64,000 bases of DNA from contig CABXJB010000001.1 in the NCBI GenBank assembly GCA_902512415.1, forward strand, positions 4,384 to 68,383, in the 5' to 3' direction. The notes below the pieces were generated by a model that made no database searches, had not been told where the DNA came from, and was given only the letters and a program-made list of their open reading frames with translations. The translations under genes were made by a program, and so were the position numbers. Below are positions 40,639-48,324 of this stretch, one piece after another. Each line of letters opens with the position of its first letter. Positions within the stretch are counted from its first letter, which is position 1. Source of the DNA: an uncultured Alphaproteobacteria bacterium. GTDB taxonomy: Bacteria; Pseudomonadota; Alphaproteobacteria; HIMB59; GCA-002718135.

Positions 40639-41733
40639 ATGCAGATTGAAGATTTTAAAACAGGTATAAAGGTTGATCCCAACCTAAAAACAATTAATTT
40701 AGATCCAAAAGAGAATGTTCAAAATAAAAAAAATATAAGAGCTCTTCTTAAAAATATCGTTGAATCTTCTTTAAGTTCGCTAAAAAAAAATTTAGAAAAA
40801 GCTTATCACAGTGAGGCAGAGTTAAATGGATTTTATCCAATAAATGAAATTAAGGGTATTGATGCAATTGAACAATTATTATGGGAGCCTCTCTTAACTT
40901 CTTTTCCTGATTTAGAGAGAAGAGATAATTTAATAATTGGGGGCAGTTTTCAAGATAAAATATTTGTATCTTGTATAAGTCATTTAACAGGAACCTTTAC
41001 TAAACCTTGGTTAAATATTCCGGCTACAAAAAAAACAATTCACTTACGTCTTTGTGAAGTGCATCAATTAAAAGATAATAAAATAATTAAATCCTATGTA
41101 CTAATTGATATTATGGATTTTATTCGCCAAGCTGGTTTTTGGCCTATCAATCCTTCACTTGGCATTGAAGAAATGTGGCCTGGACCAATTATTGGGAATG
41201 GATCTTCATTTGAAAATTTAGATATTAAACTCTCAAAAGAATCTTTGAGCCAAGGATTAACAATGCAAAGAAGTTTAAACATTAAACCTGAATCTGAAGA
41301 AGGAATAACCAATCAAGAAATTCGCAACAAATTGATAGATCACCCACAAAAGGATTTTTGGCATAAAAAGATGATGTGGTATGGACCTTGTGGCATTGGA
41401 ACAGCTAGGGGGCTAGAAGGTTTTGTTGATCATCACCAGTTACCTTTTCGATTAACTTTTAAAGAAAGAAATTATTGGAAAATTGGCCACTATGTTGAAT
41501 TAGGAGATGGATCATATTCCATGACAGGAGGTTGGCACAGCATAACAGCAACACATGGTTCAAAAGATTGGCTAGGTTATGAACCTACACAAAAACAAAT
41601 AACTATGAGAGTAATGGATTTTTACCTTCATGATGAAGGACTTATTAGAGAAAATTGGGTACCAATTGATATAGTGCATATTCTTAAACAATTGGATATA
41701 GATGTTTTCAAATTAGTTGAAAAAATGAGATGA
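40639..41733 (+). CDS. NTF2-like (SnoaL-related) two-domain protein, function unknown
   Basis: 364 aa; paralogue of 36431..37432. Its stop overlaps the start of the hisD-like gene. Confidence 0.5.
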   Translation: MQIEDFKTGIKVDPNLKTINLDPKENVQNKKNIRALLKNIVESSLSSLKKNLEKAYHSEAELNGFYPINEIKGIDAIEQLLWEPLLTSFPDLERRDNLIIGGSFQDKIFVSCISHLTGTFTKPWLNIPATKKTIHLRLCEVHQLKDNKIIKSYVLIDIMDFIRQAGFWPINPSLGIEEMWPGPIIGNGSSFENLDIKLSKESLSQGLTMQRSLNIKPESEEGITNQEIRNKLIDHPQKDFWHKKMMWYGPCGIGTARGLEGFVDHHQLPFRLTFKERNYWKIGHYVELGDGSYSMTGGWHSITATHGSKDWLGYEPTQKQITMRVMDFYLHDEGLIRENWVPIDIVHILKQLDIDVFKLVEKMR

Positions 41734-43016
41734 CTATAAAGTATATTAAAAAAGCAGATAAAACAGCCTCTTCAGATGAAGCAGAAACTCGTAAAAGAGT
41801 TCAGGATGTATTAAATGAAATTGAATCAAGAAGAGATGAAGGGATAAAAGATATATCGCGTAAATTTGATAATTATGAAGGTGATGTTATTGTTTCCAAA
41901 GAAAAAATTGAAGAGGTTATTAAGTCTCTTGATCAAAAGGTAAAAGATGACGTGCAATTCTCTTATGATAGAGTAAGAAGTTTTGCTGAACATCAATTAA
42001 AACACCTTAATAATGATTTTGAAGTTGAATTATCACCCGGTTTGTTTGCAGGGCAAAAATTAATTCCAGTTAATAGTGTTGGTTGTTATGTGCCTGGTGG
42101 TCGTTACAATAATATTGCATCCGCAGTAATGAGTATAACAACAGCAAAAGTGGCAGGCGTAAAAAATGTTATTGCAGCAAGTCCTCCAAAAGATGTGAAC
42201 GGTGCAAATCCCATTATTATTTATACAGCGAATTTATGTGGTGCTGATGTTATTATGAATATTGGTGGAATTGGAGCGATCGGAGCTTTTGCCTATGGAT
42301 GCTTTGGTAATCCAGAAGTTGATATGATTGTTGGACCAGGGAATCAATATGTTGCTGAAGCAAAAAGAATTTTGTACGGCAAAGTTGGTATTGATTTATT
42401 TGCTGGCCCAACTGAAATTGCAATTATTGCTGATCATACAGCTGATAAAGAAATGATTGCTGTTGATTTAGTAGGACAAGCAGAGCATGGACCTAACTCC
42501 CCTGCTTGGTTATATTCCACTGATCAACAATTATGTGACTATGTGATGAAGAGAGTACCTGAATTAATTGCTGCACTTCCTGAAACATCAAAAAATAATG
42601 CTGAAGCAGCATGGCGTGATTACGGAGAAATTATTCTGTGTGATACGAATGAAGAGTTATGTGAGATTAGTGATCAATATGCACCTGAACATTTAGAAGT
42701 ACAAGCAGAAAAATTAGATTGGTGGCTTGATAAATTAAAAAACTATGGATCATTATTTTTAGGCGAAGAGACAACTGTTGCCTACGGAGATAAATGCTCA
42801 GGCACTAATCATATCCTTCCAACAAAAGGGGCAGCAAAATACACGGGTGGTTTATTTGTTGGTAAATTTATTAAAACAGTTACATTCCAACGTATGACAA
42901 AAGAATCAAATAAAGAAGTTGGTGCAGCCGCTGCTAGAATTTCTCGGTTAGAAGGAATGGAAGCACATGCTAGAACGGGTGATGCTCGTTTACGCAAATA
43001 CGGATTTCAAAACTAA
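41730..43016 (+). CDS. histidinol-dehydrogenase-family NAD-dependent dehydrogenase (HisD paralogue; HpsN-like candidate)
   Basis: QAEHGPNS, APEHLEV and GTNHILPT motifs of the HisD family, with no other his genes nearby. Confidence 0.75.
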   Translation: MTIKYIKKADKTASSDEAETRKRVQDVLNEIESRRDEGIKDISRKFDNYEGDVIVSKEKIEEVIKSLDQKVKDDVQFSYDRVRSFAEHQLKHLNNDFEVELSPGLFAGQKLIPVNSVGCYVPGGRYNNIASAVMSITTAKVAGVKNVIAASPPKDVNGANPIIIYTANLCGADVIMNIGGIGAIGAFAYGCFGNPEVDMIVGPGNQYVAEAKRILYGKVGIDLFAGPTEIAIIADHTADKEMIAVDLVGQAEHGPNSPAWLYSTDQQLCDYVMKRVPELIAALPETSKNNAEAAWRDYGEIILCDTNEELCEISDQYAPEHLEVQAEKLDWWLDKLKNYGSLFLGEETTVAYGDKCSGTNHILPTKGAAKYTGGLFVGKFIKTVTFQRMTKESNKEVGAAAARISRLEGMEAHARTGDARLRKYGFQN

Positions 43017-43017
43017 A

Positions 43018-43419
43018 TTATTTTTCTTTTAATTCACCTTTTTGGCGCATTTCTTTTCTGATATTTGTTGCAGAAATTTTATGTATTTCTACTCCTAAAT
43101 CATGTTCAGTGAATGTGTAGCCCACTCCTCTGCCATAAGATATATCAATAATGTTAGGAACCTTAATAACTACATATTCTCGACCTTCTTCATATCCATG
43201 AGGCTTTAACCCTTCAATTATATTTTTTTTCACTTCTTCAAATTGAAAAGGGTTATCTGATTGTCCTTCTACGCCAGCATCTGATCCTCCTACATCACGG
43301 TACATAATGCAAACCTGTCCAGTTTTTTGCAATGCTCTTTTAAATAATTCGGTATGACCATCATGCCAGGGTTGCCACCGTCCAAGCATCTCAACAGTAG
43401 GTTTTTTCCAATCAAACAT
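43018..43419 (-). CDS. minimal cytidylyl/adenylyl-transferase-like nucleotidyltransferase (133 aa)
   Basis: GRWQPWHDGH (an H-x-G-H motif in the GRFQPFHxGH style) and a C-terminal ISATNIR (ISxTxxR) motif. Confidence 0.6.
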   Translation of the reverse strand: MFDWKKPTVEMLGRWQPWHDGHTELFKRALQKTGQVCIMYRDVGGSDAGVEGQSDNPFQFEEVKKNIIEGLKPHGYEEGREYVVIKVPNIIDISYGRGVGYTFTEHDLGVEIHKISATNIRKEMRQKGELKEK

Positions 43420-43906
43420 TTTTAATTTTCTCAGCTAATAATTTTATTTCATCATCAGTTAAAAAACTCGTTATATGCTCATTGGCATTAGATGGCTTTT
43501 CAAACATTTTCGTTGTATCATCAAATTTCTTACTCGTCGAAAGAGATTTTGCATCAAATGGAAGATTATTAATTGCATTAAGTTGATTTAATTTTGCGTT
43601 TACTACTCGCCCCTCCTTAATAGTATCTATCCAAATAAGATAATCAGCATTGAATGCTGTTCTTGCTTTTTCTGTAGGTGCTACAAAGTCACACACAACC
43701 CATCTGCCATTATTCTTTTCAAAATCTGCAAAGGTCTTCATTCTGTTGGCTTGTCTCATTCTCCCTTCAATTTCAAAGTCCCAATCATTTGCATATTTAC
43801 GAACAAAATCAGCGTTATACCAAGCACAGTTATCCAAATGCTTTACTAATCTTTCAGATAACCATGTTTTGCCAGATCCAGGTAAACCACAAACCAATAT
43901 TTTCAT
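43412..43906 (-). CDS. P-loop kinase, adenylylsulfate (APS) kinase-like
   Basis: GLPGSGKTW P-loop; NADFVRKYANDWDFEIEGRMRQANRMKTFADF aligns by eye with the CysC pattern DGDNVRHGLNKDLGFSEEDRxENIRR. Substrate is uncertain. Confidence 0.55.
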   Translation of the reverse strand: MKILVCGLPGSGKTWLSERLVKHLDNCAWYNADFVRKYANDWDFEIEGRMRQANRMKTFADFEKNNGRWVVCDFVAPTEKARTAFNADYLIWIDTIKEGRVVNAKLNQLNAINNLPFDAKSLSTSKKFDDTTKMFEKPSNANEHITSFLTDDEIKLLAEKIKNV

Positions 43907-44037: not shown

Positions 44038-44832
44038 ATGATTTCAACGAATCCTTTTGCAGAATTGTCACTAACTATCCCCTCCTCTTTAATGCAGTTA
44101 TTCGTTATAACCATGATTGCTCTAGTTATCATTGGTACTGTTATGGATATAATCCATAAAAAAAATGTAAAATATTTTTTTCAAAATGCGAAAAAAGCAA
44201 AACTCCAAGCTAAAACAGAAGTTAGTGCGGGGAAAAAAACATCCGTAGTTCTAAAAACAGTAGCTCATGAAATATTAACAACTTCTGAATTAGGTGCAGG
44301 AAAAAGAAGAGTGGCTCATCTATTAGGTATGTACGGAACTATTATTTTCTGGATTTCTTCCGTTATTATGATCTTTTGTTATTCTTCAACGAATATAGTT
44401 ACCCCTACTTACTGGCCAATCTTATGGCACTTAGGGGCATTGATGACTTGTCTTGGCGGATACTGGTTTTGGTTTTTTCTAAGAGTCGATGTTGTTGCAG
44501 AAGCCTATCCTTGGTACCGCATTATACAAGCAGACCTATTTGTTTTAGCGCTTATTATTACATCAACCTTAGCCTTGATATGGTCCTTTTTCCAATTCTC
44601 AAATATTAATGTTTGGGATACTTTATTTTTAGCTTTATTTGGAATATCTAATTTAGTTTTATTTGGGGGAGTATATTGGTCTAAATTTGCTCATATGTTT
44701 TATAAACCAGGCGCTGCAATACAAAAAAATTTAGCTGAAGCTGATGGTTCAAGAGATAACCTTCCGCTACCTGCAGATAAACCAAAACAATTTGGTTTAG
44801 GAATTAAAAGAGAAGCACCAAAACATTATTAA
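44038..44832 (+). CDS. aprM: APS reductase membrane anchor
   Basis: 264-aa polytopic membrane protein immediately upstream of aprBA, matching the known aprM-aprBA arrangement. Confidence 0.65.
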   Translation: MISTNPFAELSLTIPSSLMQLFVITMIALVIIGTVMDIIHKKNVKYFFQNAKKAKLQAKTEVSAGKKTSVVLKTVAHEILTTSELGAGKRRVAHLLGMYGTIIFWISSVIMIFCYSSTNIVTPTYWPILWHLGALMTCLGGYWFWFFLRVDVVAEAYPWYRIIQADLFVLALIITSTLALIWSFFQFSNINVWDTLFLALFGISNLVLFGGVYWSKFAHMFYKPGAAIQKNLAEADGSRDNLPLPADKPKQFGLGIKREAPKHY

Positions 44833-44872
44833 AAAATTATGAAAAAAATAAATAAAAAAAGGAAAAAATAAA

Positions 44873-45343
44873 ATGTCAACTTTTGTATATATGACTAAAT
44901 GTGATGGATGTGGACACTGCGTTGATATTTGTCCTTCTGATATAATGCACATTGATAAAACAACTCGTAGAGCTGTTAATATTGAGCCCAATATGTGTTG
45001 GGAATGTTATTCATGTGTAAAAGCATGCCCTAATGAAGCAATTGATGCAAGAGGTTATGCGGACTTTGCTCCAATGGGTCATAGCGTTCGTGTTTTGCGT
45101 GAAGAAGAAAAAGGAACAATTTCATGGAGAATAAAATTTAGAAATGGAACAGAAAAAAACTTTGAATCTCCAATCACAACAAAGCCTTGGGGAGAATATA
45201 TTCCAAAACTAGCTGAAAAAGAATTACCAACAAAAGAGGAGATAGATTCTGAGCTACTATACTTAGAGCCTAATGGTCTTAATATCGATACAGGTCTTCC
45301 AAAAATAAAAAAGAGTAATTTTAAACAAGGTGTTTATTACTAA
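44873..45343 (+). CDS. aprB: adenylylsulfate reductase beta subunit
   Basis: Two ferredoxin cluster motifs, CDGCGHCVDICP and CWECYSCVKACP; 156 aa; adjacent to aprA. Confidence 0.9.
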   Translation: MSTFVYMTKCDGCGHCVDICPSDIMHIDKTTRRAVNIEPNMCWECYSCVKACPNEAIDARGYADFAPMGHSVRVLREEEKGTISWRIKFRNGTEKNFESPITTKPWGEYIPKLAEKELPTKEEIDSELLYLEPNGLNIDTGLPKIKKSNFKQGVYY

Positions 45344-47202
45344 TGGCAAAAATTAAAACAGTTTATGAGAATTGTGATGTCCTCGTAGTAGGTGGAGGAA
45401 TGGCAGGAACTGGAGCTGCTTTTGAGGCAAGACACTGGGGTAGAGATTTAAAAATTATTTGTGTAGAAAAAGCTAATATTGATAGAAGTGGTGCTGTTGC
45501 TCAAGGTTTGTATGCAATTAATTGTTATATGGGTATGCAGTGGGGTGAGAATCAACCAGAAGATCATGTCAGGTATGCTAGAAATGATTTAATGGGACTT
45601 GTACGTGAAGATCTGGGTTACGATATGGCACGCCATGTTGATTCTACTGTTCATATGTTTGATGATTGGGGTTTACCAATGATGCGAAATGAAAAAACAG
45701 GACGCTATCTAAGAGAAGGTAAATGGCAAATAATGATTCACGGAGAAAGTTACAAACCAATAGTAGCAGAAGCAGCAAAAAAATCAGCGGATAAAATTTA
45801 CAATAGAATAATGATTACACATCTCCTTATGGATGAGAGTAAAGAGAATAGAGTTGGTGGTGCTGTTGGATTTAATATGCGTACTGGAAATTACCATGTC
45901 TTTAGAGCTAAAGCAGTAATAGTAGCTGCTGGTGGCGCATCTCATATTTTTAAACCTCGAGCTGTTGGGGAAGGAATGGGTAGAACTTGGTATGCACCTT
46001 GGAGTAATGGGTCAGCTTATGCTTTACCTATTGCTGTTGGAGCAAAAATGACACAAATGGAAAACAGAATTGTTCTAACGAGATTTAAAGATGGTTACGG
46101 TCCCGTTGGCGCTTATTTTCTTCATCTTAAGACGTATACTCAAAATGGTAATGGAGAAAATTATGAGAAAAAATGGTATGAAAAAACAAAAGAATTGGTT
46201 GGTGAATATATAGACCATGTTCCTGTTCCTACATGTTTGCGAAATCACGCTTTTATTGAAGAGGTTAAAGCTGGCGGTGGACCAATACATATGGTTACTA
46301 AAGAAGCTTTTCAAGATCCTCACTTAGAAACTGTTGGTTGGGAAAATTTTCTAGGTATGACCGTTGGTCAAGCAGTGGTATGGGCATCTCAAGATATTGA
46401 TCCAAAATATACAAATCCAGAACTAACTACTTCTGAACCCTATGTTATGGGATCACACGCAACATGCTCAGGTGCATGGGTAAGTGGACCTGAAGATTTA
46501 TCTCCTCCAGAGTATTTTTGGGGGTACAACAGAATGCTTACAGTTGACGGTTTGTTTGGCGCGGGTGATACTGTTGGTGGTAGTGCGCATAAATTTTCTT
46601 CTGGATCATTTACCGAGGGACGTTTAGCTGCAAAAGCTGCCGTTAAATATATCAAAGATCTTGGAGGTGAAGAAATAGAAGTTAATGAAGAACAGTGTGC
46701 TAATTTTAAAGATATTATCTATAAACCTCTTGAGAATTATAAAGTTGGTAGAAATGAAATAACAAGTGGCACAGTGTCGCCAAGTTATATTTTACCTATA
46801 CAAGGACTGCAACGTCTGCAAAAAATAATGGATGAATATGTAGGTGGGGTTGGAGTTAATTACATGACGAACGATAATTTGCTCAAAAAAGGAATTGAGC
46901 ATTTAAATATTTTACAAGAAGACCTTGAAAATATAGGAGCTGAAGACTATCATCAACTTATGCGTGCTTGGGAATTAAAACATCGTGCACTCACTTCACA
47001 ATGTGTAGCGGAACATACTCTTTTCCGTGAAGAAACAAGATGGCCAGGATATTATTATCGAGGTGATCATATGAAGTTGGATGATGAAAATTGGCATTGC
47101 TTAACGGTATCAAGAAGAGATCCTAAAACAGGTAAATTTACATTGGAGAAAGCTCCTCTTTATCATATCGTTGATGAAAAAGAAGAAAATGAATCTGCTT
47201 GA
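45343..47202 (+). CDS. aprA: adenylylsulfate reductase alpha subunit (FAD)
   Basis: FAD motif VVGGGMAGTGAA and fumarate-reductase-family flavoprotein pattern; 619 aa. Confidence 0.9.
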   Translation: MAKIKTVYENCDVLVVGGGMAGTGAAFEARHWGRDLKIICVEKANIDRSGAVAQGLYAINCYMGMQWGENQPEDHVRYARNDLMGLVREDLGYDMARHVDSTVHMFDDWGLPMMRNEKTGRYLREGKWQIMIHGESYKPIVAEAAKKSADKIYNRIMITHLLMDESKENRVGGAVGFNMRTGNYHVFRAKAVIVAAGGASHIFKPRAVGEGMGRTWYAPWSNGSAYALPIAVGAKMTQMENRIVLTRFKDGYGPVGAYFLHLKTYTQNGNGENYEKKWYEKTKELVGEYIDHVPVPTCLRNHAFIEEVKAGGGPIHMVTKEAFQDPHLETVGWENFLGMTVGQAVVWASQDIDPKYTNPELTTSEPYVMGSHATCSGAWVSGPEDLSPPEYFWGYNRMLTVDGLFGAGDTVGGSAHKFSSGSFTEGRLAAKAAVKYIKDLGGEEIEVNEEQCANFKDIIYKPLENYKVGRNEITSGTVSPSYILPIQGLQRLQKIMDEYVGGVGVNYMTNDNLLKKGIEHLNILQEDLENIGAEDYHQLMRAWELKHRALTSQCVAEHTLFREETRWPGYYYRGDHMKLDDENWHCLTVSRRDPKTGKFTLEKAPLYHIVDEKEENESA

Positions 47203-47539
47203 AAAATCAGATGAAGAAATATTAGATATAGCAAATCCTCTTTGGGATAACCTTGTAAACAGCTCGAACAAAAAAGATTATTTTGAATTCATAAAAGATT
47301 TTTCTGCCAAAATGCTCTTAGGTGCGAATGAAGTAGAAATAGGAAAACAATGGGCAAATAATAAATTGCTTACAAGTTTGGATGAAAATAAAATTTTTTT
47401 AGGATGTTTACGAAGGGATGGATTTGTTACTGTTTTATTTAAACAAAAAAGCAATGAAGTATCCGGAGATTTTTTAGGGAGACTTGTTCTTGGTATAGAA
47501 GATGATCAAATTAAAATATTTGGTGCAACTATTTTTTAA
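47189..47539 (+). CDS. hypothetical protein downstream of aprA
   Basis: Intact ORF overlapping the aprA 3' end. Start is ambiguous (47171, 47174 or 47189). No recognisable motif. Confidence 0.45.
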   Translation: MNLLEKSDEEILDIANPLWDNLVNSSNKKDYFEFIKDFSAKMLLGANEVEIGKQWANNKLLTSLDENKIFLGCLRRDGFVTVLFKQKSNEVSGDFLGRLVLGIEDDQIKIFGATIF

Positions 47540-48324
47540 ATAGCATTGTTAGAAGCTATAAATTCTGGATTTAATAAACTCTCCTTTTCATTATAATTTA
47601 TATCTTTATTATCCAAAGTTAATATTTTGCCACCCGCTTCATTTAAAATAATATGGCCAGCTGCTATATCCCATTCAGAAGTTGGTCCAAAACGAGGATA
47701 AATATCTGCATCACCTGCAGCTATTAAGCAAAATTTGAGTGAACTCCCTGCTTGAAGAATTTTTGCTTTGGGAAATTTTTCATTAACCCAATTTGCAAAA
47801 GTATTATTAGAATGAGAGCGACTTCCTATAATACGCACTATATTAGATTGTTCTGTCACAGTAATTTTTTTTGCTTCATCAAGACTGTTTAATTCAATTT
47901 TGGTATGTAATGAAAAAGATCCAAATCCTTTTTGAGCAAAATAGAGTGTTGATTTTGCAGGTGCAAAAATAACCCCTAAGATTGGGTTATTATTTTCAAT
48001 TAGAGCAATATTAACGGTGAACTCTCCATTTTTTTTAATAAACTCTTTAGTGCCGTCTAAAGGGTCAACTAACCAATATTTGCTCCAATTCTTTCTTTTG
48101 TTCCAATCAACAAGTGACTCTTCACTTAAAACAGGAATATTAGAATTTAAACTATGAAGTGAATCAATGATGAATTTATTAGAAGCTAAATCAGCTTTTG
48201 TTAAAGGAGATGAATCATCTTTATGAGTAACTGCAATATCTTTATTATAAAAATGAAGAATTTCATCTCCTGCTAATATGGCAATATTGCAAATATCTAG
48301 TAACAATTTTTTATTTTCAATCAT
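47536..48324 (-). CDS. cysQ: 3'(2'),5'-bisphosphate nucleotidase
   Basis: WLVDPLDGTKEF and GSSLKFCLIAAGDADIYPRFGPTSEWDIAAG, the CysQ-type pattern. Confidence 0.85.
   Translation of the reverse strand: MIENKKLLLDICNIAILAGDEILHFYNKDIAVTHKDDSSPLTKADLASNKFIIDSLHSLNSNIPVLSEESLVDWNKRKNWSKYWLVDPLDGTKEFIKKNGEFTVNIALIENNNPILGVIFAPAKSTLYFAQKGFGSFSLHTKIELNSLDEAKKITVTEQSNIVRIIGSRSHSNNTFANWVNEKFPKAKILQAGSSLKFCLIAAGDADIYPRFGPTSEWDIAAGHIILNEAGGKILTLDNKDINYNEKESLLNPEFIASNNAI

Follow-up and report, generated by a model that had tools for sequence, protein, structure and literature searches.

A kinase-nucleotidyltransferase gene pair that replaces cysD-cysNC in HIMB59-type bacteria is probably a miniature PAPS synthase

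What does a very small kinase-nucleotidyltransferase pair do beside the genes of an adenosine 5'-phosphosulfate (APS) reductase? The question is raised by a 64,000-nt stretch of DNA (the window, below) from an uncultured alphaproteobacterium of the HIMB59 lineage, in which the genes of a 164-aa APS-kinase-like P-loop protein and a 133-aa nucleotidyltransferase overlap by 8 nt and stand back to back (divergently) with aprM-aprB-aprA, and cysQ ends the locus. This layout, as given in a preliminary description of the window, was borne out in full (Table 1), and the 8-nt overlap translationally couples the two genes. That description had offered two explanations: a non-canonical two-piece module that interconverts APS and its 3'-phosphorylated form (PAPS) for Apr, in a genome type reported to have no assimilatory sulfate reduction, and a split, NadR-like pair for the salvage of nicotinamide adenine dinucleotide (NAD). 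We conclude that the pair is probably a miniature PAPS synthase of two polypeptides that takes the place of cysD-cysNC. The conclusion draws on gene anatomy, homology, fusion, co-occurrence, mutual exclusion, in situ replacement and gene linkage, from which we infer the substrates and the direction of flux.

Both window proteins have thousands of metagenomic relatives, and a search with a 10-sequence transferase alignment as the query found the pair conserved in at least 588 species genomes; the two open reading frames (ORFs) are therefore not a chance pair. Transferase identities were 74 to 78% in Pelagibacteraceae and about 60% in SAR86, and the transferase was also found in metagenome-assembled genomes of Marinimicrobia and Crocinitomicaceae. 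In a survey of 81 genomes of the window's order, each at least 80% complete, kinase and transferase occurred in exactly the same 21 genomes. Two related genera, represented by genomes G087 and G089, encode both proteins in one 264-aa ORF, kinase first, located directly upstream of cysQ. The fused form also corresponds to PHROG 10255, annotated as 'kinase' (E 7e-52), with the window kinase matching its first half and the transferase its second. Compared with 1.8 billion cluster representatives, the fused protein had 2267 relatives, 108 of them below 1e-30; the best-scoring of these 108 were mostly fused proteins of about 250 to 270 aa. Overlap, fusion and co-occurrence in 21 of 21 genomes mark the kinase and the adenylyltransferase as a single unit, whether coupled or fused. 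Some longer relatives carry additional domains (DUF4118, NTP_transferase, RecA, chorismate synthase), which were set aside as apparent gene-call chimeras or as uninformative.

The pair and the canonical sulfate-activation genes exclude each other in the window's order. CysD was found in 52 of the 81 genomes and in none of the 21 pair carriers; cysD-cysNC was present in 52 of the 60 genomes without the pair. Canonical CysC, recognized at E values of about 1e-70 within CysN-CysC ORFs of 621 to 647 aa, was absent from 19 of the 21 carriers and present in 23 of 24 genomes of the window's genus that lack the pair and in 30 of 34 sister-family genomes. Sat occurred in only 2 of the 81 genomes. The source assembly of the window (925 kb, 55 contigs), which is 62% complete, contained no Sat, CysD or canonical CysC.

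The two gene sets also occupy the same place. All 22 loci examined from window-genus genomes without the pair read cysQ, cysD, cysNC, converging on a hisD-family gene; in pair loci that lack the apr cassette and have kept the hisD flank, the kinase and transferase genes follow cysQ and likewise converge on hisD. The pair and cysD-cysNC thus share one slot and its flanks, which is replacement in situ. On a maximum-likelihood tree of three flanking genes from 46 loci, the cassette states required seven changes, at least six of them forced by well-supported branches. A single inherited event does not explain this pattern; the two cassettes are interchangeable and have repeatedly taken each other's place, as expected of functional equivalents.

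Two further features of the canonical genes were seen in the survey. In the sister family, to which the closed 1.41-Mb genome G037 belongs, the ORF that contains CysD has about 490 to 507 aa (L057:7086-8546, plus strand), some 190 residues above the usual size, which indicates an N-terminal extension or a fusion. Besides its fused gene, genome G087 has canonical genes for Sat, a stand-alone CysC of 185 aa and a sulfotransferase in one cluster (C7:33332-36642).

The CysC-like P-loop attributed earlier to the divergent 164-aa protein is present as GLPGSGKT, and the protein matches Pfam APS_kinase (PF01583) at 25.7 bits against a cut-off of 21.1, over profile positions 5 to 92 of 152 only. Among solved structures, the Aeropyrum APS kinase 2yvu is closest to it. 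When aligned with canonical CysC of the same order, the kinase retains most residues that correspond to the CysC D-x-x-R, D-L-G-F, D-R, R-R and S-P motifs; the Ser of CysC I-S-P is Ala or Cys. Across 12 aligned sequences, D33, R36, R49, R55, F74, P77 and R82 were invariant, and D41 and F44 were conserved in at least 90%. The AlphaFold2 (AF2) model of a fused homologue (predicted local distance difference test score, pLDDT, 93.9) has a P-loop kinase fold of the APS-kinase type: Foldseek matched it to gluconate kinase and to many APS kinases at E values of 1e-5 to 1e-6 and template-modeling (TM) scores of 0.55 to 0.74 on the target, with PAPSS1 structures among the matches.

Kinases of the family come in two lengths. 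At the position of the APS-kinase lid, the window and SAR11 proteins carry an unrelated 27-aa insert (window residues about 101-127). This long form was found in every split-gene, aprA-positive genome examined, SAR11 included. Genomes without aprA have a short form of 137 to 143 aa that lacks the insert, as do the SAR86 and fused forms. The insert may tune the kinase where AprBA supplies APS.

The 133-aa protein has the HxGH/ISxTxxR signature named in the preliminary description, as GRWQPWHDGH and ISATNIR. It scored below the cut-offs of Pfam CTP_transf_like (18.2 versus 21 bits) and of two models of nicotinamide mononucleotide (NMN) adenylyltransferase (NMNAT), PRK01153 (29.2 versus 127 bits) and TIGR01527 (22.1 versus 181.2 bits). 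A profile of its family, searched against the PDB, found the archaeal NMNAT MJ0541 at E 8e-12, then NadM, then phosphopantetheine adenylyltransferase (PPAT), and never Sat; nor did the protein match the Pfam model of Sat (PF01747). Its AF2 model (pLDDT 89.5) has three core strands, and about 85 of its residues superpose on NMNAT or PPAT in Foldseek. To judge by its sequence, the transferase is derived from an archaeal-type NMNAT and not from Sat. The kinship with ATP sulfurylase that had been pointed out thus holds for the shared HxGH superfamily and fails for the family of origin, which is NMNAT.

The way in which the transferase departs from NMNAT bears on its substrate. The profile aligns to MJ0541 residues 3-75 and 109-133, and the 33 residues in between, from the third strand to G-Y...I-S-x-T, have no counterpart; 8 residues ending in an invariant G-R-x-x-G (loop Y-G-R-x-V-G-Y) stand in their place. 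The lost segment is where, presumably, the NMN-binding residues of NMNAT sit. Two arginines are specific to the family, R97 in all sequences and R41 in at least 90%, and they suggest a small anionic second substrate. Displacement of cysD-cysNC and the absence of Sat and CysD from pair carriers point to sulfate as that substrate and to the transferase as a putative ATP sulfurylase.

As a PAPS synthase, the pair would work in two steps. The transferase would adenylylate sulfate (ATP + sulfate <-> APS + pyrophosphate), and the lid-less kinase would phosphorylate the 3'-OH of APS with ATP to give PAPS for sulfotransferases; CysQ would recycle 3'-phosphoadenosine 5'-phosphate (PAP) to AMP. In the window, an aprM-aprB-aprA-orf122 cassette appears to have been inserted between cysQ and the kinase gene. 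There, AprBA would form APS from AMP and sulfite released in organosulfur breakdown, and the transferase, running in reverse, would turn APS and pyrophosphate into ATP and sulfate, the ATP sulfurylase step that is otherwise missing in these genomes and in SAR11.

The constant neighbour of the pair is cysQ, not apr, because aprA was absent from 11 of the 21 pair carriers of the order; Apr as an obligatory partner was rejected on the same count. Linkage of cysQ to the pair took three gene orders. In window-genus relatives without apr, cysQ is followed after a gap of about 20 nt by the kinase gene, which overlaps that of the transferase; in G087 and G089, the fused gene is followed by cysQ; and in the window and genomes G036, G062, G091 and G092, aprM-aprB-aprA-orf122 lies between cysQ and the kinase gene on the opposite strand. 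Genomes G093 and G094 keep cysQ and the transferase gene together, and their kinase gene lies just after aprMBA-orf122 in convergent orientation. The ancestral first gene of the cysQ-kinase-transferase operon is cysQ.

Where the pair and apr are adjacent, three arrangements were found: the pair diverges from aprM (window), the kinase gene converges on the cassette after orf122 (G093, G094), or the whole pair converges on it (SAR11). The preliminary description had held that clear NadR orthology together with no linkage to apr in other genomes would speak against a role in sulfur metabolism; linkage recurs in these three arrangements, SAR11 included. Co-occurrence with aprBA, which it had proposed as a check, held in one direction, since 10 of the 11 aprA-positive genomes of the order and 13 of 13 of the SAR11 family have the pair, and not in the other, given the 11 carriers that have no aprA.

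The SAR11 survey consisted of a sample of 20 genomes of the SAR11 family. The pair and aprA were found in the same 13, adjacent in those with listed coordinates, and each of the 16 SAR11 loci fetched has the kinase and transferase genes converging on orf122-aprA-aprB-aprM. Sat was found in none of the 13 pair carriers and in 1 of the 20 genomes, one without transferase and aprA. Five pair carriers from SAR11, SAR86 and Marinimicrobia were searched for Sat, CysD and canonical CysC and had none of them; apart from one hit below threshold, their APS_kinase matches were all ORFs of mini-kinase size, with weak scores (E 1e-5 to 1e-7). Most SAR11 lack ATP sulfurylase (PMC10356861), and Ca. P. ubique is without cysDNCHIJ and sat, yet 'cysC' is listed for aprA-positive strains (PMC5069961). 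The 'cysC' listed for SAR11 strains is probably the mini-kinase. In the records examined, the transferase has no functional name.

Between SAR11 and the window's order (L089-L104 compared with window positions 44038-47202), identity was 86 to 93% for AprA, 64 to 70% for aprM and 63 to 78% for the kinase and transferase. The excess for AprA suggests either strong constraint on this protein or exchange of the apr cassette between lineages.

Candidate users of PAPS accompany the pair. Sulfotransfer_1 genes (E 1e-23 to 1e-27) were found in all five pair carriers tested, the window's own genome included, and in a recurrent type of SAR86 locus the pair is immediately preceded by a Sulfotransfer_3 gene (E 5e-38). 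A 367-aa gene upstream in some SAR86 loci was considered and proved to be no sulfotransferase relative. On one phage contig, the fused gene shares 4 nt with a gene for a 586-aa protein that has a sulfotransferase domain.

Other phages present different surroundings. In Xylella phage Bacata and Stenotrophomonas phage Bhz60 (Casjensviridae; L022:5565-6741 and L023:5565-6741), the fused gene shares 8 nt at its start with a NADAR (COG3236) gene, and genes for a MazG-like pyrophosphatase and an annotated 'cysteine dioxygenase' lie a few genes upstream. Around the phage homologues P0253 and P0264, only replication, lysis and packaging genes were found, and the homologue P0245 is on a 2.4-kb contig.

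A number of observations weigh against the pair being a PAPS synthase. The kinase scored 15.7 bits against the APS-kinase equivalog TIGR00455, below its cut-off of 138.7; the first Asp of its D-G-D motif is N, S or G; and the lid of APS kinase (P-K-G-L-Y-K-K-A-R-x-G-E) is missing, with nothing in its place in the short and fused forms. Lacking the lid and falling below the TIGR00455 cut-off, the kinase is therefore possibly slower or of other specificity. The nearest sequence relatives of the transferase are NMN adenylyltransferases, and hhalign of its family with two Sat sequences of the order gave a probability of 31% over 22 columns around the HxGH helix, with no Sat-specific similarity; as this alignment comprises only the helix common to the superfamily, the transferase was rejected as a relative of Sat. 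Genomes G081 and G087 carry the pair together with a small stand-alone canonical CysC. Many of the surveyed genomes are incomplete and related to one another.

The distribution of PAPS users and of sulfate import is mixed as well. Sulfotransfer_3 was found in 66 of the 81 genomes with no correlation with the pair, a distribution that is uninformative because genomes that lack the pair have CysDNC as their route to PAPS. A search for sulfotransferases in the Xylella and Stenotrophomonas phages gave nothing credible (E 0.0077), and the coupling to NADAR may point to NAD or ADP-ribose biology in some phages. The SulP sulfate permease (PF00916, E about 1e-53) was present in six of the seven aprA-negative pair carriers tested (G072, G086, G063, G066, G080, G083) and in none of the eight aprA-positive ones (G000, G036, G062, G091-G094, G061). 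Its absence from the latter fits reverse flux rather than sulfate activation there. Together these counts, from a small sample confounded by relatedness, suggest two entries to APS: imported sulfate via the transferase, or sulfite via AprBA.

The evidence for the kinase outweighs that for the transferase, and an unlikely alternative builds on this difference: the kinase would be a true APS kinase replacing CysC, the transferase would be no ATP sulfurylase, and APS would be supplied otherwise. The transferase might then, for example, convert APS and phosphate to ADP and sulfate, like an ADP sulfurylase or APAT, or transfer AMP to another small anion. The want of Sat-specific similarity and of SulP in aprA-positive carriers agrees with such a division, and AprBA alone could give APS in the aprA-positive genomes. 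Eleven pair carriers without aprA, Sat and CysDN nevertheless retain the kinase and therefore need a source of APS, and nearly all of the aprA-negative carriers tested encode SulP. Moreover, not only cysC but also cysD and cysN are replaced by the cassette, and kinase and transferase are fused in many lineages, all of which speaks against this alternative.

Two other readings dispense with sulfate. A NadR-like role in NAD salvage, with nicotinamide riboside kinase and NMN adenylyltransferase activities or with NMNAT and a kinase acting on NAD, seems very improbable. It would account for the matches of the transferase profile to archaeal NMNAT/NadM (E 1e-9 to 8e-12), the weak ones to NCBIfam NMNAT models, a weak P-loop match of the kinase to human Nrk1 and the NADAR gene of the Xylella-type phages, and phages do rebuild NAD with NadR-like enzymes (NARP3; PMC13464706). 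The pair swaps with cysD-cysNC, however, and not with NAD genes; its linked genes are cysQ, apr and sulfotransferases; and NadK is present in 73 of the 81 genomes irrespective of the pair, with no displacement, so that the kinase was also rejected as a NadK replacement. The kinase is nearest to APS kinase and gluconate kinase, not to the ribosylnicotinamide kinase (RNK) domain of NadR, the domain order is opposite to that of NadR, and the transferase profile finds NadR structures at E 0.02 only. The segment missing from the transferase is, we assume, the one by which NMNAT binds NMN. With cysD-cysNC as the swap partner, weak NadR matches and recurrent apr linkage, the NAD-salvage alternative of the preliminary description found no support. 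Least probable of all, in our estimate, is synthesis of some other 3'-phosphorylated adenylylated compound, as in the making of dephospho-coenzyme A (CoA) and CoA by PPAT and dephospho-CoA kinase. In its favour, the transferase matches PPAT structures second best, by fold as well as by profile, and the predicted target of the kinase is the 3'-OH of an adenylyl compound. The link to cysQ would follow from PAP as a by-product, and PAP is also set free when phosphopantetheine is transferred from CoA. That reading leaves the exclusion of cysD-cysNC and the links to apr and sulfotransferases unexplained; other CTP_transf_like genes, of the usual sizes, are present in the window genome; and within one genus only some members have the pair, which would be unusual for an essential step of cofactor synthesis. 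The two-piece APS/PAPS module proposed at the outset, with its activity predicted, is the reading supported by the exclusion and replacement of cysD-cysNC, the links to cysQ, apr and sulfotransferases, and the kinase-first fusion.

A PAPS synthase of this kind would follow the logic of PAPSS1/2 and of CysD with CysN-CysC, in which sulfate is adenylylated and the 3'-OH is then phosphorylated. The kinase shares its fold, and apparently its family, with PAPSS1, the kinase-first fusions have what we take to be the domain order of animal PAPSS1/2 (N-terminal APS kinase, C-terminal ATP sulfurylase), and the genomic slot is that of the bacterial cysD-cysNC. The pair is far smaller, at about 265 to 300 aa against about 620 aa for PAPSS and about 930 aa for CysD plus CysNC; it has neither the GTPase nor the PUA-like domain, its adenylyltransferase appears to be NMNAT-derived and its kinase is lid-less. 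In register with CysC (PF01583, TIGR00455), the kinase has the P-loop, D-x-x-R, D-x-x-F, G-R, R-x-x-x-x-x-R, F-x-x-P and F-x-D-T...F-E-x-P, and the folds match; it differs in the deleted lid, in the 27-aa insert of the window and SAR11 proteins and in failing TIGR00455.

The transferase shares with archaeal NMNAT/NadM (MJ0541, 1f9a; M. thermoautotrophicum NMNAT, 1ej2) the motifs G-R-x-Q-P-x-H-x-G-H and I-S-x-T-x-I-R and the N-terminal two thirds of the fold. It is shorter (133 aa against 168 to 181 aa), has R97 and R41, and lies among sulfur rather than NAD genes. With Sat (PF01747) it has in common the HxGH nucleotidyltransferase superfamily, the proposed reaction and a G-R-D loop after a core strand; there is no family-level similarity, and it is about a third of the size of Sat. 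NadR and NARP3 likewise combine a kinase with an HxGH adenylyltransferase, and both these and the pair occur in phages; their domain order is opposite, their kinase belongs to a different family, and the pair has no PnuC partner. NadR structures matched the transferase profile at E 0.024 to 0.026 only, and the kinase gave no match to them at E values up to 1. The phage NARP3 route from nicotinamide riboside to NAD uses a canonical NadR-like enzyme with PnuC, of a family that differs from the pair (PMC13464706).

The neighbours of the pair are listed in Table 1. AprB and AprA both exceed the equivalog cut-offs of dissimilatory-type APS reductase, and CysQ exceeds that of TIGR01331. The aprM-like gene precedes aprBA in all apr loci. 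The protein of orf122 is soluble, of about 120 aa, and has no Pfam or NCBIfam match; its gene comes after aprA at each of the apr loci examined, in SAR11 as in the window's order, with 65 to 98% identity, and it may be an unrecognised accessory protein of Apr.

The hisD-family gene adjoins the pair in some relatives and cysD-cysNC in others. It occurs next to the cassette as two alleles at one site, with 93 to 97% or about 47% identity to the window copy, and either allele is found with either cassette (window and L056, L058, L139-L158). In the window, it overlaps a SnoaL-like gene (40639-41733) by 4 nt.

Table 1. Features of the locus in the window (positions in the 64,000-nt stretch)
Feature	Positions	Strand	Basis
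hisD-family gene, conserved flank converging on the cassette	41730..43016	+	Pfam Histidinol_dh, 450 bits
HxGH nucleotidyltransferase, 133 aa, putative sulfate adenylyltransferase	43018..43419	-	ORF call, profile vs PDB
Overlap of kinase stop and transferase start, 8 nt	43412..43419	-	coordinates
APS-kinase-like P-loop kinase, 164 aa, 'long' form	43412..43906	-	ORF call; Pfam APS_kinase
aprM-like membrane anchor of APS reductase	44038..44832	+	weak QmoC match (NCBIfam); position
aprB, APS reductase beta subunit	44873..45343	+	TIGR02060, 193.8 bits vs cut-off 135.65
aprA, APS reductase alpha subunit	45343..47202	+	TIGR02061, 989.8 bits vs cut-off 641.75
orf122, conserved small protein, last gene of apr cassette	47171..47539	+	position in relatives
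cysQ, 3'(2'),5'-bisphosphate nucleotidase (PAP phosphatase)	47536..48324	-	TIGR01331, 298.3 vs 228.8 bits

A literature search found no paper describing the kinase-transferase family, which would make it an undescribed enzyme family for known chemistry. With somewhat less assurance than for the PAPS synthase itself, we favour a broader view: the transferase would be an NMNAT-derived ATP sulfurylase of a third class, not described so far, and together with the lid-less kinase it would form the smallest known PAPS synthase. It would also be the missing ATP sulfurylase of sulfite oxidation in SAR11, and the sulfotransferases of SAR11, SAR86, HIMB59-type bacteria and some of their phages would draw their PAPS from the pair.

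SAR11, SAR86 and HIMB59-type bacteria rank among the ocean's most abundant cells. SAR11 has APS reductase and lacks ATP sulfurylase and cysDNC (PMC5069961, PMC10356861), which has left the fate of its APS and the source of its PAPS unexplained. If our reading is true, a pair of about 300 aa that does the work of the roughly 930 aa of CysD and CysNC closes this gap. A textbook reaction would gain a new enzyme family, and genome streamlining a clear case of analogous gene replacement; a phage auxiliary gene for sulfation would be identified as well. Counts of sulfur-cycle genes in marine metagenomes would change accordingly.

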